DNA from: a virus
Lineage: Duplodnaviria > Heunggongvirae > Uroviricota > Caudoviricetes
IMG/VR virus record: IMGVR_UViG_2939147180_000006
Span: 1 to 54,932 of that record
Length of the DNA: 54,932 bases
Strand: one strand, 5' to 3'
The position numbers were made by a program, and so were the translations under genes. Shown here piece after piece: positions 69-54,920 of this stretch. The notes under the pieces are model-generated. The model made no database searches and was not told the origin of the DNA. It was given only the letters and a program-made list of their open reading frames with translations. Numbering within the stretch: position 1 is the stretch's first letter; each line of letters opens with the position of its first letter.

Positions 69-92
69 AATTTGGTCACAATTTGGTACACA
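69..92. repeat. 24-bp direct repeat copy (aatttggtcacaatttggtacaca); partner at 54897..54920; candidate att core or integrase arm-type site
   Basis: Read directly: 23/24 identity with the copy at the other window end; each built from two 11-12 bp AATTTGGT(C/A)AC sub-repeats. Confidence 0.4.
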
Positions 93-119
93 AAAAGAAA
101 CGAGGCGTAAGCCTCGTTT
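90..119 (-). terminator. Rho-independent terminator downstream of tail fiber gene
   Basis: Hairpin aaacgaggc-gtaa-gcctcgttt followed on minus strand by TTTCTTTTT, 30 nt beyond the stop at 150. Confidence 0.6.
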
Positions 120-149
120 CGCGCGGCGATGTTCTTCGCACATCACCTC

Positions 150-3100
150 TTATTCTTCGCTTCCGGTCAACTGACTGATAAGCGCTTCAAGTTTTGCTAT
201 CCGCTCATCCATTGCTGCAATGTTAGCTTTCAGGCTTGCGTTCTCCTCTTCCAGTTCGGTGACGCGGTTATCAGTTTCGCGTGCCACCTGGACAAGTAAA
301 CCAGTCACCGCCGCATAGTCAACATTAAGGTAACGTGTTTCTTCTCGTAGCTCGTTGCCGTCAACGGTCGGACCCTGCAATTCTTCACCGTAACGCGTAA
401 ACGATCCTACGGCTTCCGGTAGCGCCTCCATTACTTCCTGTGCAATAACGCCAGCATAAGGAAGGCCGTTTTCCTTGAGCGTGTAGGTGTACCCGTTCAT
501 TTTACGGATTGCTTTCGTCGCGTCTCTGATAACGAGAATATCGTCTTTAAGGTCGCGGTCTGATGACTGATTCAGCGTTGTGCAATTAATAGCGCCATTT
601 ACATCAAACAACTGGCCTGCTGACGTTTTTTGCGCATAAAACAGATACGCAGAAGACGTTCCAACCTCAAAAACGTTTTGTCGATCACTTGATCCCCAGA
701 CCCTGATGCTAACTGGTAGTTCTGCATTACCTGAATTAAGTAAAGCAAAACGATTGCCAGTCCCTGCTTGTTTTCTAATTACTAAATCGGCAGTTGAGTT
801 AACCTCATCTTTGTTGATGGTTAGCGCCTGCGCTGTAGCACCGTTAACAGTGCCACTTAGTAGTTGAACCGCTCCATCATCGCCATTTAACAGCACTTGA
901 GCGCTGCTTCTGTGGTTTTTCAGGAACAACATTTTGCCTGTGCTTTCTGATGTACCTACCGACCATGCCGAATTGGTTCCAGTGCTATCAACACCACGCA
1001 CAGTGCAATTCATGCTGCCATAATCTGACGTACTTCCAAGCACATCAATACGCCCGCCACCTAATTTTGATGGAGTCGTCGAGGTTAACGACCTGACGGT
1101 TACATCCTGATTTCTTCCTGAAACAACAATCTGACTCCATGCAGACCAGTTACCATTTTCACAATAGCGAACGTATATTTGTTTTGTGTCTGTGGCAACA
1201 AGGGTTTGCAAGTTTGTATAATCTGAATCCCTAACCTTACGAATTGACTCTACGCGAAGCAAAAAGTTACCGCCTACGCCGTCAGGCTTATTGGTAATGG
1301 CGTTACCACCAGCGGCATTTGTGCATTGATAATATTTAACTGAACCTTTATCCGCGAACTTAATGACAAGGTCGTTAAGATCTATAGCCTTGCCGTCAAT
1401 GGTTTCTGGATTGATAGATCCCGCCATACCTGCGTTAAATGTGGCAAGGCCAGAAAATGTTGTTTGACCGCCTACCGTTACCCCGCTATCTAGTATTGCT
1501 TGTGTAATTACTCTACTGTTTAGTTTCTGATCAGCGCTACCACCAAAAGCCAGATATCCACTATCGTCAATTCCAAGATATTTTTGTTCAATGTCGCTAA
1601 CCTTGAACCCAATGGATAAATTTTTAAATGCGTCAGTGCGCGTTAAAACCAATGGCGTGTGCTGTGCTCCGCTGATTTTTAACGTAGTATTAGTCGCGTC
1701 AGTTGATGTGTTTGCAAGCTCTGCGGTGGCTCCGCTGATTTTATACGTTACTTTCAAATCGCGGGCTTCTACCCTACCGTCGTGGCGAACAACAAAATCA
1801 CCACTTGATTCACCTTTTGCGTTTTTAGCCCTGATGCGAACTTCGCCAAGCGTATCAGTGTTTTGACCAGCATAGATTATGCCGCGCTCCTGGTTTTGGT
1901 CAGTGTAAAACCGCACAGCGGTAGCACCAGTTCCACCTGTTGCCCGTAGGTAGATCGAAGGAGTTTCTTTACTGATTGTTAAGTCTCCTGACATAACATC
2001 GCCGGATTTTTTCACCTGCGCATCGTTAGTTACGTTGCCAAGTCCAACGTCCGATTTCGACGGCTTATTTTGGGTTCCGTATAGCTCATTTACGGCATAA
2101 GTTGCAGTTTCAAGTTTGTTATCATTGCCAGCGAAAATCTTAACTCTGGCATTTTCGTATTCTATGTTGATCGCCGACCATGTATCACCGCACCGAGAGA
2201 ATATACCAGAACCGTGGGCGTAATGTGTCGCTGTGCTTCCGTTAGGCTTATCAGCACGCCAGAAATGACTACCTTTTGCACGCAGTGCTTTTAATAGCTC
2301 TGTATTGCTCATCATGCCGTTTGATGCCGGACCGCTGCCGCCAAGACCAAAAGCGCCTATAAGCATAGCATTAGAAAGGCCTAAGTCTGCCTTGCTGGGT
2401 TTGTTTACCTGGTCGTAAATCCTTGCTGCCGGGCTTTCAATAAATCCAGAAGGTGCGTCGGTTTGGGTAACATATCCTTCAGGAATGTATAATTCCGTGT
2501 TGCCAGTCTGCGCCAGCACCGCGACTTTTGTTTCTTTAATAAAAGCTCGCTGGTAGCACCAGACCTCGATATAGCCGTCACCTTTAACCAGGCCGTAACG
2601 CATTTGATTATCATTGGGAAGGTTTGGTGAACCGAGTCGGCGAACACTTAAAAATTTAGATATATTTTCACTGGTTACTTCGCCTGTATCGTTAAGACCT
2701 CGAGCGGAGATCTCTATAAAGTCAATATTCCCGTAACTTGAACCGTAGTTACCGCCATTTGTAACCATTAGCGTTAAGTGGCAGCTTACTGACTTTGGAT
2801 CGCTAAGTTTAGCGATCTTAACGTAAGCGCCATTATTGCTAGTTTCAACAGGCCAAGCACATTGGACCATTGGGCTGGTAAGCCTTCCCATTTGATTAAG
2901 ATATTCTTGCGCCCTGTTCTCTGATGTTTTGGCGTTGGTTTCGCTTGTCTTCGCGTTGGTTTCGCTTGTCTTCGCGTTGGTTTCTGATGTTTTCGCTGCT
3001 GTGGCAGATTTTGCAGCCGCTGTTTTTGACGCTTCTGCTGCGTTTTTGTCAGATTCTGTTTTTTGAGCGTTGGCGGTTGATTTGGCTGTTTCTGCGCGAA

Positions 3101-3476
3101 TGTTGGCAAGAAGCTGATCCATCTGACCATCACCGCCGAAATCTTCCCACCACTCTACAGCGGCGGCGATTTCTGTTTCCCTGCCCTGGTAGTAACGCAG
3201 GGTTTCAGCTACGTCCTGAGCAAGCCCATCAACTGAGATCGAGTCAGATAGTAGAATACTGAATTTTGTCCCAGCAGGGATGGCTGGGTTAGCCGCTGGT
3301 GTTACTGACAGTTCAGTGCCGCTCTTGATTTCCGTAATGGTAAAGATCTGTACAGGATTGCCAACAGCAATGAGCGTGCAACCTACACGAATGAGAGAAA
3401 GTGGCGCGGAAAAGTTTGTGCCCGTGCCTGTAACAGTATTGCCACTAATGGCAATTGTTCCAGTTGTGTAAATCAT
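150..3476 (-). CDS. Distal tail fiber protein with C-terminal peptidase-S74-type intramolecular chaperone domain
   Basis: 1108-aa ORF after J; C-terminal segment ...NQSSDRDLKDDILVIRDA... plus coiled coil typical of self-cleaving chaperone domains; AKTSETN tandem repeats near N-terminus; GGAGT RBS. Confidence 0.7.
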   Translation of the reverse strand: MIYTTGTIAISGNTVTGTGTNFSAPLSLIRVGCTLIAVGNPVQIFTITEIKSGTELSVTPAANPAIPAGTKFSILLSDSISVDGLAQDVAETLRYYQGRETEIAAAVEWWEDFGGDGQMDQLLANIRAETAKSTANAQKTESDKNAAEASKTAAAKSATAAKTSETNAKTSETNAKTSETNAKTSENRAQEYLNQMGRLTSPMVQCAWPVETSNNGAYVKIAKLSDPKSVSCHLTLMVTNGGNYGSSYGNIDFIEISARGLNDTGEVTSENISKFLSVRRLGSPNLPNDNQMRYGLVKGDGYIEVWCYQRAFIKETKVAVLAQTGNTELYIPEGYVTQTDAPSGFIESPAARIYDQVNKPSKADLGLSNAMLIGAFGLGGSGPASNGMMSNTELLKALRAKGSHFWRADKPNGSTATHYAHGSGIFSRCGDTWSAINIEYENARVKIFAGNDNKLETATYAVNELYGTQNKPSKSDVGLGNVTNDAQVKKSGDVMSGDLTISKETPSIYLRATGGTGATAVRFYTDQNQERGIIYAGQNTDTLGEVRIRAKNAKGESSGDFVVRHDGRVEARDLKVTYKISGATAELANTSTDATNTTLKISGAQHTPLVLTRTDAFKNLSIGFKVSDIEQKYLGIDDSGYLAFGGSADQKLNSRVITQAILDSGVTVGGQTTFSGLATFNAGMAGSINPETIDGKAIDLNDLVIKFADKGSVKYYQCTNAAGGNAITNKPDGVGGNFLLRVESIRKVRDSDYTNLQTLVATDTKQIYVRYCENGNWSAWSQIVVSGRNQDVTVRSLTSTTPSKLGGGRIDVLGSTSDYGSMNCTVRGVDSTGTNSAWSVGTSESTGKMLFLKNHRSSAQVLLNGDDGAVQLLSGTVNGATAQALTINKDEVNSTADLVIRKQAGTGNRFALLNSGNAELPVSIRVWGSSDRQNVFEVGTSSAYLFYAQKTSAGQLFDVNGAINCTTLNQSSDRDLKDDILVIRDATKAIRKMNGYTYTLKENGLPYAGVIAQEVMEALPEAVGSFTRYGEELQGPTVDGNELREETRYLNVDYAAVTGLLVQVARETDNRVTELEEENASLKANIAAMDERIAKLEALISQLTGSEE
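2919..3000. repeat. About 3.5 copies of a 21-bp tandem repeat inside the tail fiber gene (encodes AKTSETN repeats)
   Basis: Read directly: gcgttggtttcgcttgtcttc repeated head-to-tail. Confidence 0.7.
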
Positions 3477-3560
3477 CGCAATGACTCCATTTTGTTAATT
3501 AACGATATTATTTTAACGCTTTGTCATTGCATGTTCTATTTTTGTGTATACATTATGTAT

Positions 3561-3582
3561 AAAAAACCCCGCGACTGCGGGG
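3561..3582 (-). terminator. Rho-independent terminator immediately after J
   Basis: Minus strand GC hairpin ccccgc-agtc-gcgggg followed by TTTTTT, 7 nt after J stop. Confidence 0.6.
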
Positions 3583-3588
3583 TTGGTG

Positions 3589-6500
3589 TTAGTCGTGTGA
3601 TTCTTCCCATTTATCCCACGTACCGTTACAACGTCCAATTAATATAGTGGGGCAACATAACTGTATTTGTGTTATATCAACCGTGGTTGGCGGCGTATAT
3701 ATCTCGATGACAACATCAACAATCTGATCTGTTACACTGTCTCTACCACAAACAAACATACCGTTGGATTGTTCATTGCCAAATTTTTTCGCATCAAGCA
3801 CTTTCACTCCGTTGATAAATGCGTTTATGTACGAACTGGATAGTAACCCTGTTAATCTTGCCTGGAATAATACGTTTTTATAGGTTCCTTCTGTTGTAGA
3901 GTCAATAAAGCGATAACAAAATCTTGCTACCCTGTAAGTAGTATTAGGTACTTTGCTACTATCAGGGAAAACGTGCATTGCTACAATGTCACCAATGAAT
4001 CTGTTGGCGCGTACAGTTCCTGTAAATGTACCGCTGTCCGCATGTATTTCACCCCTTACAACAACGTTGTTAAATTCTGATGCGCCGCTTTGTGTTATCC
4101 TCCAACCACTGGAACCAGGGACGAAGTTTGCTGATTTAATTTCATTAACAATTTTAGCCATAGTAATGGAGGCATCTGCAATTTTAGCCGTCCCTATTGA
4201 CGCATCCTTAATAAACGCCTCTTTCACATACATTGCGCCGTTAGTGACATAGAATGGCGATGTATATGAACCGTTTGCTGCGGTCATTAACACGAAACGG
4301 TCAACAAGGAAAATACACTGCGACTGAAAGTTAGTGCCGTCACCAGTAAGGCCAAGCGACATACCTGCTGCGTATTTTACGCCATTGCTATCTGTGGCGA
4401 GCTTGATTGAATATGTCGCATCAACATTACCCTTAAAGTCGGTTAATGCTTTCGATGTCGTCTCTATTGCCGTCTTATTCCCGTTAACGGTCACTGTTAA
4501 CTGATCAATTTTCGTTGACAACGCCTCGTCTGCCGTAGCCATTGTCTGCGACCATTCTGTAATACTTGCGTTTACTGATTCGAAAGACGCTGAGATCTGG
4601 CTAAATTTTTCTGCGCTTGATGTTTCATGCGTAGAGAGCGCCGTTGACACTTCAGATACTTTTGAGTTGATTGTGCTGGTAAGCGATGCGCTAAGGCCGC
4701 TTATTGCGTCTGCGCGTGCTTTTGTTTCATCGGCGATGGCTTTGTCCATCCTGGTGACGTTGCTTGTCACTTTATTATCAAGCGTGCTGACACTTGCGCT
4801 AACTTCGCTGATAGCTTGTCCTCTGGCGCTTGTTTCGTCAGCAATTGCCTGATCAAGGCGGTTAACGCTTGCTTCGGTTTTCTTATCAAGGTCGGTGATC
4901 GATGCGCTTACCCCGCTAATGGCTTCCGCTGTCGCTTTTTTCTCTTCAGCAATAACGTTGTCAATACGGTCAATTTGCGCGTTTGTTTCTCTGCGGCCTT
5001 TCTTGTATTGGGCCGTAAGAGTAACTCGCGTGTTGGTTTGAGCGATTGAGTTATTGATAAGTGCAATAGATGCGTTTTGCAGGCTTGCTTTTGCCTGATT
5101 TATTTCGTCGCTGTTTTTGCCAACATTATTTTCAACAGCGCCAAGATTTGCGCTGAGGCCTGATATTGCTTGTGCACGGGCGCTTGATTCATCGGCAATT
5201 GCCTGATCAAGACGTTTAACGCTGGCGTTTGTGTTGTTCTCAAGCGTTGTTAAGTCTGCTTTAACCTCTGTTATTGCGTCGCTTCTTGCCTTCGTTTCGT
5301 CTGATATTGCTTTATCAAGGCGGGAAACGCTGGCGTCAGTTTTCTTGTCAAGGGTGTCTATCGACGCCTTCACGCCGCTGATGGCCTGTGCGCGTGCGCT
5401 GGCCTCGTCAGCGATGGCCTGGTCGAGTCTGTTCACCTCTGATTCAGTGTTGCTTTCAAGCGTGCTGATGCTTGCATTAACGCTGCTGATAGCGTCAGTG
5501 CGCGCCTTAGTTTCGTCTGCAATCGCTTTATCAAGGCGGCTAACGTTACTTGTAACCTTGCCGTCGAGTGCGGAAATTGACGCATTCACACCGTTGATGG
5601 CTTCGGTTCTCGCGCTTGTTTCATCCGCAATGGCTTTATCAAGGCGGCTTATGCTTGAATCGGTTTTCTTGTCGAGCGCTGATACTGAGGCATTTACCCC
5701 GCTAATAGCTTCGCTGCGTGCGCTTGTTTCGTCAGCAATAGCTTTATCCAGGCGTTTAACGCTGGCGTCAGTTCTCTTATCAAGTACCGAGATACTTGCG
5801 TTAACGTCACTGACCGCCTGTGTGCGGGCGTTCGTTTCATCTGCAATAGCCTGATCAAGCCTATTGACGCTGGCATCCGTTTTCTTGTCGAGATTGCTTA
5901 TTGAGGCGTTCACACCGTTAATAGCTTCAGCGCGGGCACTAGCCTCGTCAGCCACTGCGCGTTCCACACTGGAGATCTGACCTTTAAGGTTGGAATCCAT
6001 CGCGTTCATTTCTGCCGTGATGGTTTTCAGTGATTCAGCCGTTGCTTTTTTCTCTTCAGCGATAACGTTGTCAATACGGTCAATTTCCGCTTTCGTTTCC
6101 GTTCTGCCTTTTTTGTACTGGGCGGTAAGGGTAACGCGCGTGTTTGTCTGTGCAAGCGAGTTGTTGATAAGCGCCAATGACGCGTTTTGCAGGCTTGCTT
6201 TTGCTTGCTCCAGTTCACTGCCAACTTTTTCGCTGGACACTTCTAATAGGTCAATCCTGGACTCATGCTGACCAATATCATCGGCGTTTTCCTTAACTTT
6301 TTTGTAAAGATCTTCCGTTTCTTTTTTAAGTGTATCGGTGTCAGCTTTTATTGTTCCTGTTTCTGTGATCAGGTTGTCAGTGTCAGTTCTTAAATCTTCG
6401 GTTATGTTGGTCAGGTTGTCGGTTTCAGTTCTTAAATCGTCAGTTATGTTGGTCAGGTTATCAGTTGCAGTTTTGAGGTTGTCGGTCGCTGTTTTTAGTT

Positions 6501-9030: not shown

Positions 9031-9043
9031 GGCTTTTCTCCTG

Positions 9044-9574
9044 TTAACTTACAACGTCTAGGGCGTCTTTGTTGTTACTTGTGTCTATGCCTAACGATCC
9101 GACGTTTGAACCTATTTTCATTTCACCAAACAGGATTGGCACTGGCCTGCCCTGTCCAACCTTGTTTTCAATACTGGTGTAGGTGTTGTTCGTTATGGTG
9201 TTATCTTGTGCGCTTTCTGCTGATGTTTTTATCTTCATGTTGCGTGACATAAAGATCGAGAATGCAACGCTAACCACTGAAACACCAATCAGGATCCAGC
9301 CTACAACACCAATCCCAGCAATACCGCCTTCAACTACAGGCGCAATAATGACGGTAGTTCCGTCAGGGTATTTACTGTTAACCGCTGCCGGGGCCGTCTT
9401 TTCGTTATAATCTTTCCCGGCAATCCGTAACCGCAAAGGTGTATTTAAAAAAGCCTTCTTGAACTCCTGATTCTGCGCGGTCAATAGGCTAAGTCCCTGC
9501 GATGGCGTATCAACGTTTAAACACACCTTGCCGTAATATCTTCGAAGATTGCCCGTAAATCTAAATTTGAGCAT
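9044..9574 (-). CDS. I: Tail assembly protein I homolog
   Basis: 176 aa; LRIAGKDY and GEMKIGSNVG segments resemble lambda I; hydrophobic central stretch; overlaps K 3' end. Confidence 0.7.
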   Translation of the reverse strand: MLKFRFTGNLRRYYGKVCLNVDTPSQGLSLLTAQNQEFKKAFLNTPLRLRIAGKDYNEKTAPAAVNSKYPDGTTVIIAPVVEGGIAGIGVVGWILIGVSVVSVAFSIFMSRNMKIKTSAESAQDNTITNNTYTSIENKVGQGRPVPILFGEMKIGSNVGSLGIDTSNNKDALDVVS

Positions 9575-11239: not shown

Positions 11240-11251
11240 GAGGTTAACGAA

Positions 11252-11611: not shown

Positions 11612-11875
11612 ATGGGGAGGAGCAATCACGGCGATTATGTGTACACGTTGAAACAGGCCGCCCGCCTCGTCGGTTATCATGAACACGAATTTATTGATTT
11701 GCTGATTGAGCGCGGGATACTGTACCAGGTCTGTTTAACACTGTACCCAAAAGCGAAATACCTACAGGAAAAGTTATTCATCATCATGACGGATGAAAAC
11801 CAGGTAAATCATTCATTCGTTACTGATAAAGGCGTCAATTATCTGCGTGATAACTTACAGGACTGTATATGTTAA
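11612..11875 (+). CDS. Hypothetical protein (87 aa) with possible HTH segment
   Basis: ORF 9 nt after previous stop; segment YTLKQAARLVGYHEHEFIDLLIERGIL looks helix-turn-helix-like (inference). Confidence 0.45.
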   Translation: MGRSNHGDYVYTLKQAARLVGYHEHEFIDLLIERGILYQVCLTLYPKAKYLQEKLFIIMTDENQVNHSFVTDKGVNYLRDNLQDCIC

Positions 11876-13229: not shown

Positions 13230-13484
13230 ATGAAATTGGTGGCGATTGGCAAAAACCTGAAAGCACAGAAAAACGCCCAGGACCGGATAATCAAAAAGGG
13301 CAAGTCTTTATTAAATGCTTTCCTGAAAAAAGAGGCCAACCCCAAAAAATTACGCGATGGCTACGGTTATAAATTTGACATCAACCCCGATTGGCGGTTA
13401 TTCAGCGAAGATTTAAAGATGTGGTTAATTATTGACCATCTGGAATACAACCGCCACTGTGGAGTAAAAGGGGCACATAAATGA
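13230..13484 (+). CDS. Hypothetical basic protein (84 aa)
   Basis: ORF with GGGGTGAG RBS; lysine-rich. Confidence 0.45.
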   Translation: MKLVAIGKNLKAQKNAQDRIIKKGKSLLNAFLKKEANPKKLRDGYGYKFDINPDWRLFSEDLKMWLIIDHLEYNRHCGVKGAHK

Positions 13485-45293: not shown

Positions 45294-45298
45294 AGTGT

Positions 45299-45946: not shown

Positions 45947-45949
45947 GTC

Positions 45950-46100
45950 GCTACCCTATAAGCTAAAAAAGTTTGATGCAAGTCACAAAATGTATTTTTC
46001 AATCCTTGACCTGTTAACGCCATTCTGTAAACTTGCAGACAAGGTAAGTCCATACTTGCAAGGATGCAAGAAAAAAGATAATGGAAAGCACAAAAGGAAC
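45950..46100. promoter_or_regulatory. Immunity-region operator/promoter region (OR/PR/PRM equivalent) with CTTGCA/TGCAAG palindromic half-sites
   Basis: Divergent intergenic region between repressor and rightward operon; repeated CTTGcagaCAAG, aCTTGCAAGg, gaTGCAAG; TTGACC -35-like hexamer. Confidence 0.4.
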
Positions 46101-46252
46101 ATACCTTAAAAGCTCTTTAAAAATCCGGTGTCGCTGCGAAGCGAAAAACAAATATCACGCAACGGCGGGATCTGTTGAGCGGTCAGTCACTGCTATCTAA
46201 TGCTAATTGGATGCCCGCCAGCGCGTTCACTCTAACCATAGGAGAAAACACG

Positions 46253-46507
46253 ATGAGCACGAACATGATTAACAAAGCATGGAACGTAAAACTTAACAGC
46301 CCGATTCAAAAACTAGTTTTAATCTCCCTTGCTGAGACGGCGGATAGCCAGGGGCGGACAAGCGTATCACGCGAAGAAGTAGCAAAAATGTGTGAACTTC
46401 CTGTTCATACGGTACATGATGCCTTCGCCGCATTAATTAGCAAAGGGTTTGTTTGCCGTATTGATGCGTTTAGTGGTGTCTATGTAGTTATGTTGCCGGA
46501 GGAATGA
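46253..46507 (+). CDS. Winged-helix DNA-binding protein, first gene of rightward early operon
   Basis: AGGAG RBS and ATG at 46253 (table ORF has an N-terminal extension); HTH-like segment TSVSREEVAKMCELPVHTVHDAFAALISKGFV; not lambda-Cro-like. Confidence 0.45.
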   Translation: MSTNMINKAWNVKLNSPIQKLVLISLAETADSQGRTSVSREEVAKMCELPVHTVHDAFAALISKGFVCRIDAFSGVYVVMLPEE

Positions 46508-47556
46508 TTATGAAGTGGTTTAAGCATGATAGCGATGCGAACCGCGATGAAAAACTTCAAAACGTTTTATTAGATTATGGCCTGGAAGGTTACGGGCTTT
46601 ATTGGTATTGCCTTGAACTGATAACTTATGACGTAGATCAGCACAATCTTACTTTTGACCTACGACATGACGCGAGAATCATTGCGCGAAACGTCGGATC
46701 TACTGAAAAACGTATAGAAGAAATGATGAAATACTTCATCGAAATTGGTTTGTTTGAATGTTCTCAAGGCCACATAACTTGCCTAAAGTTATTAAAAAGG
46801 CTAGACCAATCAATGACTTCTAAAAGCGCTTACAGGGCCGCCATAAACACAGCGAAGGAGCAATTAAAATTAGAAAAGTTAATCAATCCAACACAAAAAG
46901 GTCATGATAGGGTCATGACCGGGTCAGGAAAGGGTCATGAATTAGAATTAGAAGAAGAAATAGAAAAAGATATATACACTTCGTGTATTGTCGAAAATGA
47001 ACAAAAAATGGTCAATCAGGATGACGTAAACGAAGCGGCGTTGCGTTGCCTGGCCTTCTACAACGACAAGGCAGGATGCAAATGTCGTGATGCGAAGCCA
47101 TTCATCGAACTACTGACAGAAACAAAAACACGTAAAGCGTATACGGAGGATGAGATCACATTGGTGATTGAGTGGGCTTTAACGCAATGGCGTAGCCGTG
47201 GTGGAACACCTAAGCCTATCAATATTTGCCGGGTAACTAAATTTGATGGGTATCTGACTGATGCTGAACAATGGCGCAAACTGTCAGCCACTGCAAACGC
47301 TGCCGACGTGGTGGAAGCATTTAACAGCACGTTTGACGGCCTGTTACCACCTGTCGAACTGGATCGGGATCTTGAACGCAAGATCTATGCGTTCACTGAC
47401 TACCTGAAAGACAAAAGCATTAACGGCTTTGTCGCCTACTTCGAAACATTCAAAAACACGGCTTCAGATTTTTACTTCGGCAATGGCTTCACGGCGACAC
47501 TTGATTTTCTGCTTAAACCAAAAACGCTACGCGATACACGCGCAGGCGCTCTTTGA
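46504..47556 (+). CDS. Replication initiation / replisome organiser protein
   Basis: 350 aa; N-terminus KWFKHDSDANRDEKLQNVLLDYGLEGYGLYWYCLE resembles phage replisome-organiser N-domain proteins; followed by helicase. Confidence 0.6.
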   Translation: MIMKWFKHDSDANRDEKLQNVLLDYGLEGYGLYWYCLELITYDVDQHNLTFDLRHDARIIARNVGSTEKRIEEMMKYFIEIGLFECSQGHITCLKLLKRLDQSMTSKSAYRAAINTAKEQLKLEKLINPTQKGHDRVMTGSGKGHELELEEEIEKDIYTSCIVENEQKMVNQDDVNEAALRCLAFYNDKAGCKCRDAKPFIELLTETKTRKAYTEDEITLVIEWALTQWRSRGGTPKPINICRVTKFDGYLTDAEQWRKLSATANAADVVEAFNSTFDGLLPPVELDRDLERKIYAFTDYLKDKSINGFVAYFETFKNTASDFYFGNGFTATLDFLLKPKTLRDTRAGAL

Positions 47557-47690
47557 CCAACCACGATCCACAAAAACCCAAAATAACCCGCAAAACAAGC
47601 TCGCCAGCGAGATAAATCGCATGTGGTGCTATACTTGCTTACCTTTTTGCGATTAGCTCGTTATAGAGCGTTACAGAGAGGATTTCAAAA

Positions 47691-47792
47691 ATGGACGGTA
47701 AACACGTTTTCGCCCTGGCTTTTGCCATCGCCGCTGCAATAGCTGTTAACGTCGCTTTGTTCGGCGGTTTGTTCCTTCTAGTCAATCCATAA
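47691..47792 (+). CDS. Small hydrophobic peptide (33 aa) MDGKHVFALAFAIAAAIAVNVALFGGLFLLVNP
   Basis: Manually translated; GAGAGGA RBS; in the rep-ant intergenic region. Confidence 0.3.
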   Translation: MDGKHVFALAFAIAAAIAVNVALFGGLFLLVNP

Positions 47793-47923
47793 CATACCTA
47801 CCAGTCAGTAAATCAAAAATTAGCCACCTGGTAGCGCCTCTGACGCAATAAGACACTGCAACCCGTGCAAATGGGTTACGCGGTGGAATTTTGCGTTGTA
47901 GAGTGTTTTACGGGGAATATACA

Positions 47924-48661
47924 ATGTCTGATTTAATGGTTTTTAATTTTGATAATAATCAAATCACTGCTGTAATTTATGATGGTAAACCTGCTTTTGT
48001 TGCGGTTGAGGTAGCGAAAACGTTAGGTTATAACGATGAGCATCAAGCTCTTAATAAGCATTGTAAGTCATTGATTAGACTTGATTCCGTCGAAACGACG
48101 TCTTTGGGTTTTGGGTTCAGACCTAAAGGAATAATTCTAATCAGGGAGGCAGACGTATACCGTCTTGTCATGCGATCGAAGCTACCATCGGCTGAGCGCT
48201 TCCAGGATTGGGTGTGCGAGGATGTTCTCCCTGCTTTGCGTGAAAATGGACATTACGGCTTTAAACCAGCTTTGCCGGATTTCACTGATCCGGTTGCGGC
48301 AGCCCGCGCATGGGCGGATGAGGTTGAGCAAAAATTGTTAGTTAAGAAAGAAAATGAACGGCTTACGCTTGAAAACAAGGTGCTGGCTCCGAAAGCGGCT
48401 GTATGTGACGCGATAGTCAAAAACGATATGCACAGAACGGCTTCAGAGGTAGCTAAACCGCTGGGAATGTCAGCCGTAAAATTAAACAGAAAACTTTCGG
48501 CGGTTGGTGTTTACGATCTTCGCTGTCGCCGCCGTGTATTCAGTCAGTGGTTTATTGATGAGGGCTACGGTGAAATGAGGGTAACTCACGATGGATATGA
48601 GCAGGCTGTATTCACTGCTAAAGGACAAGTATGGATCACTGAGCTTTTAACTTGTAACTAA
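47924..48661 (+). CDS. ant: Antirepressor (Bro-N plus KilAC/ANT domains)
   Basis: Start trimmed to MSDLMVFNF; Bro-N-like N-terminus and ANT-like C-terminal half. Confidence 0.65.
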   Translation: MSDLMVFNFDNNQITAVIYDGKPAFVAVEVAKTLGYNDEHQALNKHCKSLIRLDSVETTSLGFGFRPKGIILIREADVYRLVMRSKLPSAERFQDWVCEDVLPALRENGHYGFKPALPDFTDPVAAARAWADEVEQKLLVKKENERLTLENKVLAPKAAVCDAIVKNDMHRTASEVAKPLGMSAVKLNRKLSAVGVYDLRCRRRVFSQWFIDEGYGEMRVTHDGYEQAVFTAKGQVWITELLTCN

Positions 48662-48695
48662 GTATACAATTTGTTATTCGTGAGGAAATGACACT

Positions 48696-49814
48696 ATGTC
48701 ACAAAGAAAGATAAGCGATGAGCAATTGATCGCTGAATATAACAACGGTTTAACGTACAAGCAGATCGCTGAAAAGTACGGCATGTCAAAACGCAACGTA
48801 GAGCGCCTGGGGGCAAAACTGGCGAAACGCGGTTTATTGTCAACACGCCGCGCGCCTGGTTTTGGCGTCAATGGCGAGTCGTTGCTAGTCGATAAGAACG
48901 GCAATGTGATCATGCGCTGGATTAAAACAGTCCGTGACCGCGATGAAATGGAACAGCTAATGGAATCGGCCCGCTACGCATTCACGGAAGAAATACCACG
49001 CGCGGAGGCAGTGCCAGTGCCGGAAATTGATTTCCAAAAAAGCCTGGCCCTTTATCCGGTATTTGATCTGCATATCGGCGCACTTGCTCACAAAGCAGAA
49101 TGCGGCGAGAGCTACGACACCGGGATCGCTGAGCGCGTGTTGAATGACTTCTTTGACTACGCGGTGGGCGCTGCGCCGATGTCTGAAAAAGCCGTTTTGC
49201 TTCTCGGTGGCGACCTGCTTCATTCTGATGGAATGGTCCCGGTTACACCAACAAGCGGGCACATTCTTGATCAAGATAGTCGTTATGCAAAACTTGTCTA
49301 TGTAGCGATCCGGTCTGTCCGGCGTGCTGTCGGGAAGATGTTGTTAAATCATAAGGATATTGAAATCCAGGTGTTATCAGGCAATCACGATCAGTCAGGG
49401 ATGATCTGGTTACGTGCGGCGCTGGCGGCTTTTTACGAAGATGAACCGCGTGTGACGGTTGATGTGTCACCTGCTATTGTTCACCACACGCAGTACGGTA
49501 AAACATTTCTCGCTTACCACCACGGGCACACTATCAAAAAGCCAGAGAATTTACTTTCTGCCTGCGTTTCTGACTGGCGGGAGGATTTCGGCAAGTCTTC
49601 GGCGGTTTACGCTCATTGTGGGCACTGGCATCATCAACGGCTGATTGAATCATCGCTAGGCGTTGTTGAGTATCACGGCACATTAGCGGGAAAAGACGCT
49701 TATTCGACTAATGGCGGCTGGCGGTCGCGGCGTCTGGCGGCGGTAATAATTTACAGTCCTGATCACGGGGAGATCGGGCGCTTTGTTTATTACCCTGAAT
49801 ATTCCATTTTGTAA
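48696..49814 (+). CDS. HTH-domain / calcineurin-like metallophosphoesterase fusion protein
   Basis: 372 aa; N-terminal HTH LTYKQIAEKYGMSKRNVERLGAKLAKRGLL; phosphoesterase motifs in order: FDLHIG, LGGDLLHSDG, LSGNHDQ, YHHGH, CGHWHH; GAGGA RBS. Confidence 0.55.
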   Translation: MSQRKISDEQLIAEYNNGLTYKQIAEKYGMSKRNVERLGAKLAKRGLLSTRRAPGFGVNGESLLVDKNGNVIMRWIKTVRDRDEMEQLMESARYAFTEEIPRAEAVPVPEIDFQKSLALYPVFDLHIGALAHKAECGESYDTGIAERVLNDFFDYAVGAAPMSEKAVLLLGGDLLHSDGMVPVTPTSGHILDQDSRYAKLVYVAIRSVRRAVGKMLLNHKDIEIQVLSGNHDQSGMIWLRAALAAFYEDEPRVTVDVSPAIVHHTQYGKTFLAYHHGHTIKKPENLLSACVSDWREDFGKSSAVYAHCGHWHHQRLIESSLGVVEYHGTLAGKDAYSTNGGWRSRRLAAVIIYSPDHGEIGRFVYYPEYSIL

Positions 49815-49832
49815 ACCGGAGGCAATAACATA

Positions 49833-51248
49833 ATGGTAACTGAGCAAATAAACTCACTACGGCAGGAACGTGAAGCATCAGTTATCGGCGGGCTGCTGTT
49901 AGGTGGCCTTACTCCTAACGCGCAAGATGTTCTAGCCACACTTGATCCTGAAGTGTTCACGATCCCGCTTTATAAACGTGCGTTTGAAGTTATCCGGGCG
50001 CAAGCCAGAAACAGAAATCTTATCGACGCGTTATTGGTTGGCGATGAGATTGGCAATGAAAACTTTGTACCGCTAATGCAAACGGCGCGATCGTGTCCTT
50101 CTGCTGCCAACCTGAAGGGATACGCACAGCTACTACGTGAAGAGCACCAGCGGCGGCAGATGTTGGAACTCATCGACGATATGCGCTACAAACTGGAAAC
50201 TGGGACACTTGATGTCGTCAAAGAGACGATGAAAGATTTTGATTCCCGGTATTCAAAATTAAAAGTAACGAAAGACAAGATCATTCCGGTGTTGTTGCGC
50301 GATGCGGTACAGGAATACACGGAGGTTTTAAGCAAACGCATGGAATGCGGTGTCAATTCTGACAACATCAAAACAGGGGTAGAACCACTCGACGAAATGT
50401 TAGGCGGCATTAACGCTACTGATTTGGTGCTTCTCGCCGGACGTCCTGGGTCTGGTAAATCTGCGTTGGCGCTGACAATTGCCCGCGCTGCCGCTGAACG
50501 CCCTTACCCTGGCAGTAAAGATCAGCGGGTTGGCGTTTTGTTCTTCACGCTTGAAATGTCACTCGATCAGATGACTGAACGCGCCATCGCTGGCGCTGGT
50601 AATTTATCAACCGACTGCCTGCGCAATCCGGTAAAACTTGATGATGAGGGGTGGGCGCATGTCGGCCAGGGCATGAGCGCACTTGCTAACCTTGATGTGT
50701 GGATCGTTGACGCGTCGCAGTTAACGGTTGAGGAAATACGCGCAACAACGGAACGCATGAAACAGGATCACCCAAATTTGGGCATGTTAATGATTGACTA
50801 CATCGGGTTAATGAAGCTGGCTAAGGCCGAACGTCACGATCTCGCTGTAGGGCAATTGTCGTGGTCGTTGAAGATGATGGCGAAAGAATTGCGCGTACCA
50901 GTGTTGGCGCTGGCGCAGTTGTCCCGCCGCGTTGAGGAACGACCGAATAAGCGTCCTAACAATTCAGATCTTCGCGATTCCGGGAACCTTGAGCAAGACG
51001 CTGACAGGATCATCATGGTGTACCGCGATGGATATTACGATGAGCAGTCTGTAGCACGTGAATACATGGAAATAATTGTATCTAAAAACCGTCACGGGAA
51101 AACTGGTACTGTTTACCAGCGGTTTGATGACAACGGCAATATATTACCATGCGACCAGGGTAAGGCCGCCGCCGCGTGCATTCAGTCCATGAATCATCGT
51201 ACAAGCAGATTTAATCAACGAAACAATCAGAATAGCGCATCTTTTTAA
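49833..51248 (+). CDS. dnaB: Replicative DNA helicase (DnaB family)
   Basis: 471 aa; Walker A GRPGSGKSA, Walker B LMIDYIG, DnaB-type N-terminal domain. Confidence 0.85.
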   Translation: MVTEQINSLRQEREASVIGGLLLGGLTPNAQDVLATLDPEVFTIPLYKRAFEVIRAQARNRNLIDALLVGDEIGNENFVPLMQTARSCPSAANLKGYAQLLREEHQRRQMLELIDDMRYKLETGTLDVVKETMKDFDSRYSKLKVTKDKIIPVLLRDAVQEYTEVLSKRMECGVNSDNIKTGVEPLDEMLGGINATDLVLLAGRPGSGKSALALTIARAAAERPYPGSKDQRVGVLFFTLEMSLDQMTERAIAGAGNLSTDCLRNPVKLDDEGWAHVGQGMSALANLDVWIVDASQLTVEEIRATTERMKQDHPNLGMLMIDYIGLMKLAKAERHDLAVGQLSWSLKMMAKELRVPVLALAQLSRRVEERPNKRPNNSDLRDSGNLEQDADRIIMVYRDGYYDEQSVAREYMEIIVSKNRHGKTGTVYQRFDDNGNILPCDQGKAAAACIQSMNHRTSRFNQRNNQNSASF

Positions 51249-51324
51249 TTAATATGAGCAAACGGCTTACCGGAAAGTTTACCGCTTTCTGGTGGCCGTT
51301 ATCGCGTTTAAAGCGAGGCTGAAA

Positions 51325-51852
51325 ATGAAAACTTCATACCAACAACAAATAATTGATTTTTTAAATGACGCTGTTATTTCAGGTGAGGGAACGATAGTTA
51401 AATCTATTCCTGGACCTGAAGGTGAAATAATTTGCGCTTTGGATGCTTTGGTTTCTGATGGTGTTATTATAAAAGTAGATCTAAATAGTAAAAGATTATC
51501 ATATTGCTTGAAGTCAGTAAGAGAAATGGCGATAAGGGATATAATCCCTTTGTTTTCAAATAGTAGCGGGTATTTTTCAGCGGAAGATGTTAAAAATGAA
51601 TTGAATATTAATATAAACAAAGGAAAGGTCGGAAGAATATTGCGGATGTTAGGAAGTGAGAACCTATTAACTGTTAATAAGTTTGACGGTAAATATTTTT
51701 TCAGAAACGCGCGTTTTTATGGCTATTCAAATGTTATCGCATTTAATTTTAGTAACTTATTAAACGAATACCGTAAAAATAATGGGCTGCTTCCTGATAA
51801 ACCAGTATTTGAGATCGAAAAACTTAACGGCAAAAAGGGGTTGGAATTATGA
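51325..51852 (+). CDS. Hypothetical protein (176 aa) in locally AT-rich segment
   Basis: GAGGCT RBS and ATG at 51325; marked local drop in GC suggests separate acquisition. Confidence 0.45.
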   Translation: MKTSYQQQIIDFLNDAVISGEGTIVKSIPGPEGEIICALDALVSDGVIIKVDLNSKRLSYCLKSVREMAIRDIIPLFSNSSGYFSAEDVKNELNININKGKVGRILRMLGSENLLTVNKFDGKYFFRNARFYGYSNVIAFNFSNLLNEYRKNNGLLPDKPVFEIEKLNGKKGLEL

Positions 51853-52055
51853 GACGTGTAATTTTTTATTCAGTTGAAACGTTTATTGACGAATCTCACT
51901 TTAAATTCCCACGCAATCCTTGCTGCGCGATGGTTTATACACCTCCACTAATGCGCAAGTATAGGCACGTAAAATTTAACCGGGCTTTTGTGCCGATTCG
52001 TTACGCTTTGCAGGCGTTGCGCGGTGAATTACGAAACACAATGCGTATTGTGTAA
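51849..52055 (+). CDS. Hypothetical protein (68 aa)
   Basis: Track ORF; 4-nt overlap with the previous gene. Confidence 0.35.
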   Translation: MRRVIFYSVETFIDESHFKFPRNPCCAMVYTPPLMRKYRHVKFNRAFVPIRYALQALRGELRNTMRIV

Positions 52056-52064
52056 GGGGCGATC

Positions 52065-52262
52065 ATGAATAAGGAATTGGATTTAACCGTTGAAGACTTG
52101 AGCACGATTGCTGAATACATGCGAGGAGACGATCCTGATAAACCTGTCGTGGTTGACATGAAAGAGTTAAAAGAAAAATACATGACAAGCTCGCGTCTAA
52201 TTTCTTTGCAGGCGATCATGTATGCGCGGGCACAGTGGAAAAATAGTAACGGTGTATCATGA
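52065..52262 (+). CDS. Hypothetical protein (65 aa)
   Basis: Track ORF; overlaps ninB start. Confidence 0.35.
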   Translation: MNKELDLTVEDLSTIAEYMRGDDPDKPVVVDMKELKEKYMTSSRLISLQAIMYARAQWKNSNGVS

Positions 52263-52690
52263 GGCAAATAAGATTTGAGATAGTAAATGACGCCGTAAAA
52301 GAAAACGCTATCAGACAGATAAGGGATATTCAGCCTGATAGCAAAAGCCCGCTGATAATTACCATTCGGGAGAAAACCCGCTCGCTAAGTCAGAATGCGT
52401 TGCTTTGGGCGCTACTGACAGACGTTAGCGATCAGGTTAATTGGTACGGCAAGAAGCTGTCACCTGAAGACTGGAAGGCGGTATTCACTGCCGGGCTTAA
52501 GAAATATGGCGTTGTCCCTAACCTGGACAAATCAGGCTTTGTTGTTCTGGGAACATCAACCAGCCGGATGAGTAAAGCAGAATTTAGCGAATTAATCGAA
52601 CTGATCTACTCGTTCGGCGCGGAACACGGTGTTCAGTGGTCTGGCGATACGAAGTTAAACGAGGAATTTATAAAACGCTGGGGGCAATAA
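52259..52690 (+). CDS. ninB: NinB (Orf-family recombination mediator)
   Basis: 143 aa; extensive resemblance to lambda NinB incl. RSLSQNALLWA, WKAVFTAGLKK, GVVPNLDKSGFVVLGTSTSRMS. Confidence 0.85.
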   Translation: MRQIRFEIVNDAVKENAIRQIRDIQPDSKSPLIITIREKTRSLSQNALLWALLTDVSDQVNWYGKKLSPEDWKAVFTAGLKKYGVVPNLDKSGFVVLGTSTSRMSKAEFSELIELIYSFGAEHGVQWSGDTKLNEEFIKRWGQ

Positions 52691-52866
52691 TGGTTAGTTA
52701 TTACAGGGCTAAACCTACAGGCATTTTGTATAAGATTGATGGCGAATATGTTTATTACTTTCACAACCAGGCGCGTGATTGGCGATTGTGTCACGCGCAC
52801 TTTAAGCACGAAATAGAAAATAACCCTGAATACTTTATCAAAGTTGACAATGTAACGGTGGCGTAA
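52690..52866 (+). CDS. Hypothetical nin-region protein (58 aa)
   Basis: TAATG overlap with ninB stop; table ORF 52636..52866 trimmed. Confidence 0.4.
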   Translation: MVSYYRAKPTGILYKIDGEYVYYFHNQARDWRLCHAHFKHEIENNPEYFIKVDNVTVA

Positions 52867-52867
52867 T

Positions 52868-53521
52868 ATGGCAAATAAAACACCTCGCGCAATAGGAAGA
52901 ATATTTCATCGTTTCAACGTTGATATTCCAAGTTTTGAAGTAACAACGTTTTTAAGCTATTACGATTTTGGTACTAAGTATTACGCAGGATCTAAGGTTG
53001 GCGGCGAGAGTTATACGCTGATGGCTAATACGTGGAGTTTTGTGCGCTACTCTGAAAAGGATGCTGACGGTATGAATAAAGAAAGCGAAATCATTGATGA
53101 ATTGATCGAAGATGAACGACGTGAATGCGAAACACAACCAGAAAAAACGGAATGGGCCGCAGGTGATAAACCTCCTGTTAATGTGTGGCTTGATTGTATG
53201 GGTGTAACCAGTGGAACGGTTCTTGATGTCGTCAAGTTTTTATATCTCGGTGATAATTGGGCTATCGCTCACAGTAAATTAGTATCAGATATTGAAACAG
53301 CTATCGCATGGAAACAATACTCTTACCGCATTCACATTGACCCGAAAGAAAAGGCGCTTGCTGAAATCGCGTTCGCACTTGCTATCAATGTCATGGGTGA
53401 AGATGCGGCAAAAGAGATTGACTTTAACCACGACAATGATTTTTCGTGCGATTATCGCAATATGGCGCAAGCTATTATTGACGGATGTATCGGACACGTT
53501 GAATACACGGGGAAAAGATAA
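52868..53521 (+). CDS. Hypothetical protein (217 aa)
   Basis: Track ORF; 1-nt spacing from neighbours. Confidence 0.45.
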   Translation: MANKTPRAIGRIFHRFNVDIPSFEVTTFLSYYDFGTKYYAGSKVGGESYTLMANTWSFVRYSEKDADGMNKESEIIDELIEDERRECETQPEKTEWAAGDKPPVNVWLDCMGVTSGTVLDVVKFLYLGDNWAIAHSKLVSDIETAIAWKQYSYRIHIDPKEKALAEIAFALAINVMGEDAAKEIDFNHDNDFSCDYRNMAQAIIDGCIGHVEYTGKR

Positions 53522-53739
53522 TGGATAAGGTCGGGACAATTCTTATTAATCGTGAGCAAGTGCAAAAAATGTTGGGCGGGCTTAGTAAGTCCGCCTTTTT
53601 TAAGCTCGTTAAGAAATGGAAAGATGCCGGAACTCCTTTCCCTGAACCAGTTAAGGGGATGCCAGCGTTAAAGCGCGGCGGATCTCTTTACCGTTATCAG
53701 GATGTCATTTCATTTTGTAAATCAATGGGCTTCATGTAG
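53521..53739 (+). CDS. xis: AlpA-family excisionase / transcriptional regulator
   Basis: 72 aa; HTH LINREQVQKMLGGLSKSAFFKLVKK followed by FPEPVK...RYQDV, AlpA-like; convergent with and overlapping the integrase 3' end. Confidence 0.5.
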   Translation: MDKVGTILINREQVQKMLGGLSKSAFFKLVKKWKDAGTPFPEPVKGMPALKRGGSLYRYQDVISFCKSMGFM

Positions 53740-54896
53740 TAATCAGCCAGTTTATTCATCGCCTCGATTTGCTCCCTCACATAATCATACTGATCATATA
53801 TAGCCATCATTCCCGCCAGTTTATGACCTAAGACCTTTTCGGCTACGTGCGGCGCAATGCCAAGCGCTGAAAGGTTTGTCCTTACAGTGCGGCGTAGATC
53901 GTGACACGACCACGGCTCGCCGCCCATCCTTAGCATCAAATCCCTTGCGGCTGTTTTCGGTACGCTCCTGTCCACCGCTTCATCCCTTCCAGAAAGCACT
54001 GGAACGAAGATAAAATTAAAGCCGTGCAAATCCATAGCTTCACGCAATAAATCAACGCTAACGGCGGATAAACCGCGTTTAAACTCATTTCTGTTCTTAC
54101 TCAATGCGCCAGGCACGGTCCACACGCAGTTATCAAGATCGAAATGTTCGCGCCTTGAGTTTGTCAGTTCGCTTGTTCTGCATCCGGTGAATATAATCAG
54201 CTTCATCAATATCTGGTTCAGTCGCGCCATTTTTGAACTGTCTATAAGGCTGATTAGATGGTGAATCTCTTGTATTGACAAAACGCGTTTCCTTTGCGCA
54301 GGGTTTTTGCCTACGTCTTTCACGCGTAGCAATGATATGTCGTCACGCTCCACGCGGCGGCGTCGCATGGCATATTTTATCACCGCCTTCATCCTGTTTA
54401 AGACTATCCCTGCCTGAACGGGCGCGCCACCATTAGCTACCTTTCTAAAAATCCCCTCCCACATTATGGAGTCCATATCATCGACGATATAGCTACCGCA
54501 TGGTCTGACAATATGCTTACTTAGCATCGCCTCGACTTGCTTATAGTTGACCATGTTTCTTGCCTGCGGTGATTCCATATACTCCCTTACAATATCCTCA
54601 ACCGTTGCCCGTGTCGTAACGCGGGAAATGTGCATTCTTTTTGCTACCGATGGATCTCGACCTGAGTTTAGCACTTCCTTATGCTCCGCCACCGCCGCCC
54701 GCGCTTCTTTGAGTGTTATTTCTCCGTATGTGCCGATCTTCATCCGTCGAGGCTTGCCGTTGAATCGGTAGCGATACTGGAAAGATATAACTCCGCGCGG
54801 GCTTATCCTGGCAGACAATCCGCCCGCGTCCGGTACTTCTTCCGGGCCGTCGTATGGCTTGCCGTGGATGTTTCTTAATTTGGTATCTGTAAGCAT
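53697..54896 (-). CDS. int: Tyrosine integrase (P4-like, DUF4102-type arm-binding N-terminus)
   Basis: Typical start MLTDTKLRN at 54896 (ORF is open to 54932); catalytic-domain segments incl. HDLRRT and LGH...Y; N-terminal arm-binding domain. Confidence 0.85.
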   Translation of the reverse strand: MLTDTKLRNIHGKPYDGPEEVPDAGGLSARISPRGVISFQYRYRFNGKPRRMKIGTYGEITLKEARAAVAEHKEVLNSGRDPSVAKRMHISRVTTRATVEDIVREYMESPQARNMVNYKQVEAMLSKHIVRPCGSYIVDDMDSIMWEGIFRKVANGGAPVQAGIVLNRMKAVIKYAMRRRRVERDDISLLRVKDVGKNPAQRKRVLSIQEIHHLISLIDSSKMARLNQILMKLIIFTGCRTSELTNSRREHFDLDNCVWTVPGALSKNRNEFKRGLSAVSVDLLREAMDLHGFNFIFVPVLSGRDEAVDRSVPKTAARDLMLRMGGEPWSCHDLRRTVRTNLSALGIAPHVAEKVLGHKLAGMMAIYDQYDYVREQIEAMNKLADYYMKPIDLQNEMTS

Positions 54897-54920
54897 AATT
54901 TGGTCACTATTTGGTACACA
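54897..54920. repeat. 24-bp direct repeat copy (aatttggtcactatttggtacaca), partner of 69..92; a third partial copy sits at 54878..54888
   Basis: Read directly; immediately upstream of the probable integrase start. Confidence 0.4.

Follow-up and report, generated by a model that had tools for sequence, protein, structure and literature searches.

The viral sequence IMGVR_UViG_2939147180_000006 carries a near-identical 24-bp direct repeat close to each of its two ends, one copy lying directly beside a gene for a tyrosine integrase (Int). This arrangement raises the question of whether the repeats mark the ends of an integrated prophage or serve the integrase in another way. The whole stretch of 54,932 nucleotides was analyzed and is referred to as the window. 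An earlier note on this DNA had offered both possibilities: the repeats could be the left and right attachment sites (attL and attR) of a prophage spanning positions 69-54920 or, if the element is circular, a cluster of five arm-type integrase sites in the phage attachment site (attP). For integrases of the lambda type, such arm-type sites are textbook knowledge. Comparison of the window with free phage DNA, with lysogens and with the empty bacterial attachment site (attB) favors the second possibility in a modified form. With a probability of roughly 0.8, the 24-mers are considered to be sites of the arm type, flanking the attP core and bound by the heterobivalent tyrosine integrase of the phage. 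Four units are well supported instead of five, and they form two tandem pairs instead of one cluster; the pairs lie on opposite arms of the core and are split by integration.

Repeats at the window ends and the prophage junctions

The left copy, AATTTGGTCACAATTTGGTACACA (window 69-92), and the right copy, AATTTGGTCACTATTTGGTACACA (window 54897-54920), are both read on the plus strand and agree at 23 of 24 positions, the sole difference being an A (left) or a T (right) at position 12. A search that allowed up to three mismatches returned exactly these two matches in the window, with 0.00 expected from 100 dinucleotide-preserving shuffles, and the spaced pattern ATTTGGT-N4-ATTTGGT occurred nowhere else in it. 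When the first and last 600 bases of the window were compared, no direct repeat longer than 9 bp was detected besides pieces of the 24-mer and a partial copy; the one other 12-bp match between the window ends is inverted (at window 453). Each 24-mer is composed of two 11-bp direct units in tandem (ATTTGGTCACn followed by ATTTGGTACACA), which can alternatively be phased as TTTGGTCACnA plus TTTGGTACACA, i.e. TTTGGT-CACnA and TTTGGT-ACACA. The right tandem covers the 24 positions (-1 to -24) directly ahead of the int start codon, and the placement of this ATG at 54896 is backed by homology and by the PGAP annotation. The left tandem is located just past the stem of the tail-fiber terminator, whose T-tail enters the repeat. 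The repeats, their single mismatch and their neighbors are thus as the earlier note had described them, and the partial third copy that it had reported near the right end is present as well, but it falls inside the first codons of int (Table 1). This third copy is without the ACAC half of the unit (the GTACAC part). Its counterpart in phage mEp021 reads aatttcgta and does not keep TTTGGT at the DNA level, and TTTGGT conservation is also absent at this position from the distant loci described below. The third copy is probably a coding by-product rather than a site.

The ends of the window match the coliphages mEp010, mEp013, mEp044 and MagusPhagus at about 88-91% identity; for the first three, nucleotide identity is 88-91% over 91-92% of the 2.4-kb integrase end. 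The integrase region is 90-96% identical to that of type II lysogens such as 190, MLI107, UMNK88, RM9245 and others. The window is a gene-bounded excerpt of an E. coli prophage of the mEpimmI group (mEp010-like, with a type II integrase). A description of this group, of its integrase types and of the abgT insertion of type II members has been published (Front Microbiol 2025, PMC11893012), and att motif II of the type II integrases is given there as the 3' end of abgT. The window's phage is likewise inserted at this 3' end, exactly as reported there. Both window edges are gene-call boundaries and not biological ends, which bears out the earlier suspicion that they were set by open reading frames (ORFs) beginning on ATG codons. 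In lysogens, the TGA of the truncated abgT is directly followed by position 1, the longest integrase ORF starts at position 54932, and three IMG/VR proviruses share the '...gcat' end boundary. Exact look-up of the 57-aa ORF at the left edge (1-171) and of the tail-fiber protein returned no record, and the first 45 bases of the window gave 0 exact matches in the genome contigs and viral contigs. The window's own context was traced via an exact protein match of the integrase, and a near-identical attL via a neighboring 176-aa protein.

The exact 411-aa integrase ORF is present on two assembly contigs. Contig ERR5917257_480 runs from the window end through 127 bp into the window start, the 371 bp after this gap being identical to the window start, and is the closed attP of the window's own phage. 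Contig ERR1148556_33 is identical to the window's last 4,236 bp, continues for 106 bp in the same gap sequence and then reads TTATCCGCTTATCTTTTTGG, the 3' end of abgT, ogt, fnr and uspE; this junction is attR. As this lysogen contig runs into abgT and ogt, the window does represent an integrated prophage, in agreement with one half of the earlier proposal. On the opposite side, attL of the near-identical lysogen GCA_001615955.1 reads ...gtcttgCCCTATCCGCTTATCTTTTGA directly followed by ATGGATAACTTAATAAAAAATTC (window position 1 onward), the bases up to window position 1 being ...CCCTATCCGCTTATCTTTTGA. The two junctions are the same in E. coli strain 190, with a prophage of ~55 kb between a truncated abgT and ogt, and the integrase-side junctions of MLI107, UMNK88 and N1286 likewise adjoin ogt; in total, 5/5 of the lysogens examined are at abgT/ogt.

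The crossover block that attP shares with attB at the 3' end of abgT is CTTATCTTTT, with partial identity on the left of the block. It sits in the 127 bp that the window lacks, stopping 2 bp before window position 1 in attL of the lysogen and starting 115 bp past window position 54932 in attR. The left host/phage junction reads CCCTATCC-GCTTATCTTTT-GA directly before window position 1, and the right one reads TTATCCGCTTATCTTTT-TGG and is found 106 bp past window position 54932. Measured from the 24-mers, the breakpoints are 68 bp farther out on the left and about 118 bp farther out on the right. In the virion-derived MagusPhagus, whose record is uncut here, the integrase and tail-fiber genes are adjacent, both ATTTGGTCACTATTTGGTACACA copies are present about 215 bp apart, and 127 bp separate the homologs of the window's last and first bases. 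The tandems are spaced by 231 bp from start to start in the window's phage, in MagusPhagus, at the circular junction of mEp010 and in six IMG/VR contigs. In the closed attP, which spans about 255 bp, the integrase-proximal (P) tandem is 127 bp from the block, the block is 70 bp from the terminator-proximal (P') tandem, and the two tandems have the same orientation. Lysogen attL and attR hold one tandem each. The empty attB of K-12 contains one CCCTATCCACTTATCTTTTTGG within the abgT 3' end, and neither a TTTGGT unit nor a copy of the 24-mer was found in the K-12 abgT-ogt region.

These junctions decide on the proposal that the 24-mers are the att core itself, duplicated by integration at the ends of a prophage spanning 69-54920. 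This proposal draws on the presence of one copy at each prophage end, beside the integrase and in the same orientation, and on the origin of the window from a lysogen. Yet MagusPhagus, mEp010, seven IMG/VR contigs and ERR5917257_480 have both copies in DNA that is not integrated, no copy is found at the empty attB, where a single one had been expected, and the breakpoints lie outside both copies. Window positions 1-68 and 54921-54932 are phage DNA as well and are contiguous with it in the closed attP. The repeats are therefore not duplications generated by integration, the core is found elsewhere, in abgT, and a role of the 24-mers as attL and attR has almost no probability left. A true att core located elsewhere in the flanks is the very outcome that the earlier note had named as refuting this proposal. 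A tRNA attachment site was also considered and rejected, since the target is abgT and no tRNA or tmRNA gene was found in the window.

Integration has visible consequences for the host locus. AbgT is shortened from 508 to 481 aa (L004 2555-3997 and L095 19941 onward, compared with L006 3248-3345 of K-12), a phage-supplied ...PYPLIF-stop replaces its last 27 residues, the 3' end is not restored and PGAP annotates the gene as a pseudogene. In addition, ogt is parted from the abg operon by 55 kb.

Conservation of the tandems with the integrase arm domain

The integrase possesses an N-terminal Arm DNA-binding domain (PF13356, Arm-DNA-bind_3, aa 2-87, E = 6.6e-20, 71.5 bits with a cutoff of 27), a central core-binding domain (PF22022) and a catalytic domain (PF00589), and its N-domain matches the N-domains of PDB entries 3JU0 and 3JTZ. 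The properties of arm-type sites are found at this locus: besides the N-terminal arm domain of the integrase, the repeats are present on both arms with a sequence unrelated to the core, they occur in attP, attL and attR and are absent from attB, and they persist together with the arm domain despite an exchange of the core.

The last of these properties emerged from a comparison within the mEpimmI group. Among nine type II attP sequences, the P tandem was invariant in 9/9 and the P' tandem was kept in 9/9, varying only at the unit boundary, which is the A/T position. The shared block CTTATCTTTT is invariant across the nine. The spacer directly right of the core (window 7-25), in contrast, is hypervariable among these otherwise about 90%-identical phages. 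The type I phage mEp021 carries TTTTGGTCACGATTTGGTACACA beside int and ATTTGGTCTCTATTTGGTACACA beside the terminator, 241 bp apart, and its inter-repeat sequence is unrelated to that of the window's phage. The arm domains of the mEp021 and window integrases are 66% identical, the core-binding domains 34% and the catalytic domains 52%. The mEp021-type integrase has its attB at ydaM (PMC11893012). The same report remarks on a conserved N-terminal DNA-binding region of the integrases, and the terms 'arm-type' and 'attP' have 0 occurrences each in it. At 10.5 bp per turn, the tandem spacing corresponds to 22.0 turns in type II (231 bp) and 22.95 turns in type I (241 bp; mEp021 and L050), which hints, from only two independent spacings, that the arm-site pairs may need to be on the same helical face.

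Two viral contigs deviate from the two-tandem arrangement. At L029 position 10855 (IMGVR_UViG_3300045988_076816), one tandem only, TTTGGTCACTATTTGGTACACA, lies between the int start and the tail-fiber terminator, and the same arrangement with TTTGGTCACTATTTGGTACACA is seen at L045 position 1272 on the minus strand (IMGVR_UViG_3300045988_064823). In both cases the 231-bp inter-repeat segment with the att core is missing, as if it had been lost by recombination between the 23-bp repeats or by collapse during assembly. Phages of this kind could not integrate. The single hybrid copies are what speaks for regarding the repeats as substrates of homologous or slipped recombination, or as a neutral duplication. 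This explanation is very improbable. The tandems are invariant beside a diverging spacer, they persist on both arms where the core region has been replaced and, as described next, similar repeats are found again ahead of related integrases from other genera. As for the deletions, they give the impression of an assembly collapse or of a by-product that arises now and then.

A scan with an alignment of the N-domain, using one genome per species, returned 39 loci in Atlantibacter, Citrobacter, Erwinia, Pantoea, Salmonella, Shewanella, Rheinheimera and other genera. Nearly all of them contain two to three direct repeats with a GTACAC-like ending within about 70 bp upstream of the int start, including TTTGGTACACGA in three copies, TTTGGTACACA in two copies, repeats of GGGTACACA and TGTACNC repeats. 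Within the 2,900 nt formed by the 100-bp segments ahead of int at 29 loci, GTACNC was counted 61 times, compared with 1.84 occurrences expected from the remainder of the same loci; the P-value of this 33-fold enrichment is inflated, as the motif was picked post hoc after the distant loci had been seen. At least two GTACNC copies are present in 24/29 non-redundant loci. Five of the distant loci abut tRNA-Arg(CCT) and the remaining loci do not, so that the motif goes with the integrase rather than with the target. A perfect tandem, TTTGGTACACATTTGGTACACA, was observed 10 nt upstream of an integrase beginning with MALSDTKLR, both on an unrelated 53.5-kb viral contig (L020 274-295, int ORF 286-1533) and in Rheinheimera/Alishewanella chromosomes (L079, L080, L081). 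These tandems suggest TTTGGTACACA as the consensus of the 11-bp unit.

Two further candidates were rejected. The tRNA-Arg(CCT) loci had prompted a comparison with KplE1 IntS as a possible sequence relative, but it is 23% identical and its arm sites are of the TAAA type. GTCACTAT in the right copy resembles the lambda arm consensus, but this lead was discarded; the position is not conserved, reading GTCACAAT in the left copy and GTCACGAT and GTCTCTAT in mEp021.

A more serious alternative, although still an unlikely one, is that the tandems bind another factor, such as a helix-turn-helix (HTH) or recombination directionality factor (RDF)-like protein, a nucleoid protein or a regulator, or that they are elements associated with a promoter or terminator. 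The right copy overlaps the int 5' region beside a -10-like hexamer, the left copy overlaps the T-tail of the terminator, a gene for a small HTH protein is always found beside int in mEpimmI phages, and binding by Int itself is something that we infer. RDF sites, however, are normally located on one arm, as those of lambda Xis and KplE1 TorI are, whereas the tandem is present on both. The P arm also has a phased repeat family of its own (ACGAT in five to six copies, or AACGGAT in type I), and the tandem accompanies the N-domain of Int into distant genera. Between types I and II the HTH protein is 45% identical, compared with 66% for the arm domain, and the tandem is nearly unchanged.

Several observations weigh against an assignment of the tandems as arm-type sites or against parts of it. 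Binding by Int, autoregulation, the RDF sites and the precise extent of the overlap region are inferences, and another protein co-inherited with int, for example the small HTH protein, could be the binder. Besides the post hoc choice of GTACNC, the distant loci show the int-proximal arm only, so that placement on two arms is documented for mEpimmI types I and II alone, and the first tandem unit (GGTCAC) deviates from the GTACAC consensus. A search of the reconstructed attP for the consensus of integration host factor (IHF), strict and relaxed, found none. No full sigma-70 promoter was detected upstream of int at the threshold of the scan tool, which concerns the autoregulation part, and the proposals on accessory factors and autoregulation lean on the analogy with KplE1 IntS. 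Finally, the searchable literature contained no report of the motif as a recombinase site, only unrelated primer sequences.

Proposed intasome and other elements of attP

If the tandems are the arm-type sites of Int, its N-terminal Arm DNA-binding domain would bind the 11-bp units, with the central and catalytic domains bound to the core GTTATCC...GGATAAC around CTTATCTTTT. Bridged in this way, attP would be folded up as an intasome of about 255 bp, and strand exchange within the shared block would put the phage into abgT. The tandems would be parted in this step, the terminator-proximal pair passing to attL (69-92) and the int-proximal pair to attR (54897-54920). For excision, Int would bridge the tandems again, probably aided by an RDF on the ACGAT repeats. 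When bound to the int-proximal pair, between the -10-like hexamer and the ATG, Int would probably repress its own gene.

Candidates for the remaining parts of such an intasome were found around the block. A perfect inverted repeat, GTTATCC-N15-GGATAAC, brackets the shared block in the window's phage, and its halves are proposed as putative core-type half-sites. The central 7 bp between them (ATCTTTT) fall within the invariant block and are a candidate for the overlap region because of this location, which is where an overlap region should be. Other type II phages mix variant halves (GTTACCT, GGGTAG), which suggests that half-cores have been exchanged between phages or with alleles of attB. Co-variation of the half-sites among phages was not found, GTTACCT occurring together with GGATAAC.

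Within the 127-bp gap (L013 372-498), ACGAT is located at gap positions 11, 21 and 31 and again at 74 and 84, accompanied by a degenerate sixth copy. These repeats are phased at 10 bp and are found on the int-proximal arm only, and type I phages have AACGGAT repeats in their place. They are regarded as candidate excisionase (RDF) sites. As for the protein, an RDF role of the 72-aa HTH protein is a guess; it has a weak match to phrog_4745 'DNA binding protein', is 45% identical to mEp021_02 and gave no Pfam match. Its gene is convergent with int, with a 43-bp 3' overlap (53697-53739), and contains a terminator-like hairpin (53574-53596, plus strand). Phased T-tracts, CTTTGTTTTTGTTTTTGATTTATC, lie at window 45-68 between the core and the P' tandem and may supply intrinsic bending in place of an IHF site. 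The terminator whose T-tail overlaps the end of the left repeat is annotated as a Rho-independent terminator in mEp010, and in the circular form it parts late transcription from attP and int.

The int 5' region is densely occupied. The start at 54896 is the PGAP start in strain 190, and the N-terminus MLTDTKLR is common to the Int of mEp021, the start of which has an annotated ribosome-binding site. The longest int ORF reaches 54932 and adds 12 codons that run through the arm sites, and this extra stretch is unsupported as coding. The gene is transcribed away from the core, which is located 139 bp upstream. The int-proximal tandem occupies all 24 nt before the int ATG, and no Shine-Dalgarno sequence was found before the ATG of type II int. 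In type I int (mEp021, L010 147-185), AGGTG is inserted between the tandem and the ATG. The -10-like hexamer upstream of the tandem reads TAAAAT in relatives and in mEp021. A -10 hexamer with at least 5/6 matches was present at that position in 6/29 loci (27 distant loci, the window and mEp021) compared with 3.9% of control segments, and many other loci show TGnNATATT at the -10-like position. By analogy with KplE1, it is hypothesized that Int bound at the int-proximal pair may also repress int. The coordinates of the features are collected in Table 1.

Table 1. Features of the integrase and tail-fiber ends of the window.
Feature	Position	Strand	Remarks
57-aa ORF	1..171	+	No family match; probably a spurious call that sets the left edge
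Candidate C' core-type half-site GGATAAC	3..9	+	Right half; left half and block outside the window
P'-arm tandem, proposed Int arm-type sites	69..92	+	ATTTGGTCACA + ATTTGGTACACA; attL side of prophage
Intrinsic terminator, tail-fiber/late operon	87..120	-	Stem 120-97, T-tail 96-87
72-aa DNA-binding (HTH) protein, candidate excisionase/RDF	53521..53739	+	PGAP 'helix-turn-helix transcriptional regulator'
Tyrosine integrase, 399 aa, type II mEpimmI	53697..54896	-	Pfam PF13356, PF22022, PF00589
Partial third copy, AATTTGGTATCT	54877..54888	+	AATTTGGTA at 54877-54885; within int codons 2-6 (L-T-D-T-K-L)
P-arm tandem, proposed Int arm-type sites	54897..54920	+	ATTTGGTCACT + ATTTGGTACACA; attR side of prophage
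-10-like hexamer TAGAAT, candidate int promoter element	54922..54927	-	1 nt upstream of the distal arm unit

Beyond attP, the first gene of the window encodes the tail fiber (150-3476, minus strand) with a Peptidase_S74 chaperone domain. This gene is a mosaic (window 236-2500). Its 3' two-thirds are ~84% identical to lambdoid side tail fibers (Ayreon, mEp460), a 118-bp patch (1953-2070) is 87% identical to the T5 L-shaped tail fiber, and the mEpimmI relatives match only the final ~600 bp. Two small plus-strand ORFs, embedded opposite to the minus-strand tail genes, look like moron-type insertions and encode a predicted ParE-like toxin domain (PF24732, E = 7e-12, 13230-13484) and a predicted KilAC/ANT antirepressor domain (PF03374, E = 5e-7, 11612-11875).

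Relation to known recombination systems and implications

In lambda attP, the arm-type sites P1, P2 and P'1-P'3 are bound by the N-terminal domain of Int. The layout proposed here resembles this system in that a heterobivalent tyrosine integrase is accompanied by short direct repeats that lie on each arm at a distance of roughly 70-150 bp from the core, differ in sequence from the core sites, are absent in attB and are split between attL and attR. Both attP regions measure about 250 bp and have a second phased repeat family on one arm, which in lambda are the Xis sites and which here is int-proximal. In contrast to lambda, the arm domain belongs to a different Pfam family (PF13356), the sites number 2 + 2 in tandem pairs instead of 2 + 3, and no consensus IHF site was found in attP. 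Moreover, int is oriented away from the core, its 5' region contains the arm sites, and the target is the 3' end of the protein-coding gene abgT, which is left truncated.

Lambda and HK022 have the same arm-type sites and different core specificity. The type I and type II mEpimmI phages resemble this pair, as the arm domain and the arm sites are kept and the exchange concerns the core, the core-binding domain and attB, albeit in another integrase family and in other phages. The attB loci of the mEpimmI phages, of which there are three or four, lie within a few kb of each other (ydaM, abgT, mppA; PMC11893012).

For the int-proximal tandem, KplE1 (CPS-53) with IntS/TorI and P4 with Int/Vis offer a parallel, as the int promoter overlaps an att arm and is subject to negative autoregulation in both. 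In KplE1, arm-type sites overlap the -10 box of intS and IntS represses its own promoter (PMC2951348). As in KplE1 and P4, int is directed away from the core here and its upstream region is the att arm. The arm sites of KplE1 are at or next to -10/+1; in the window's phage, the -10-like TAGAAT lies next to the distal unit, and the 24 nt ahead of the start codon are taken up by the tandem. The low identity of IntS (23%) and its TAAA arm sites, compared with TTTGGT/GTACAC here, set the two systems apart, and autoregulation in the window's phage is a hypothesis. KplE1 IntS is best taken as a mechanistic precedent and not as a relative.

Neither PMC11893012 nor the searchable literature identifies the tandems as arm sites, describes the layout of attP or mentions that GTACAC-type repeats recur upstream of related integrases. 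The boundaries of the prophage can be corrected to the CTTATCTTTT block, whose copies lie outside the window, one with its end 2 bp to the left of position 1 and the other with its start 115 bp to the right of position 54932. More generally, end repeats in gene-trimmed provirus excerpts can be arm sites instead of att cores and are a trap for automated att-site callers. The description of mEpimmI integration gains arm sites, candidate core half-sites and candidate RDF repeats, and a defined attP of about 255 bp could be of use in integration vectors that target abgT.

A wider reading is tentative and, at present, doubtful. The PF13356 clade characterized by M-L/A-T/S-D-T-K-L-R...GKPY.GP, in Enterobacterales, Alteromonadales and beyond, might share a GTACAC arm code that also serves to switch int off. 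To change the core target (abgT, ydaM, mppA, tRNA-Arg and others), an exchange of the central and catalytic domains alone would be enough, and attP would be self-deleting. If this were true, GTACAC-ending repeats between a -10-like element and the int ATG would be both the scaffold of the intasome and an off-switch operated by Int, and the 23-bp identity of the arms would give rise to integration-defective variants such as L029 and L045. If biochemically confirmed, the recurrence of GTACAC would become an arm-site consensus for a widespread subfamily of integrases.

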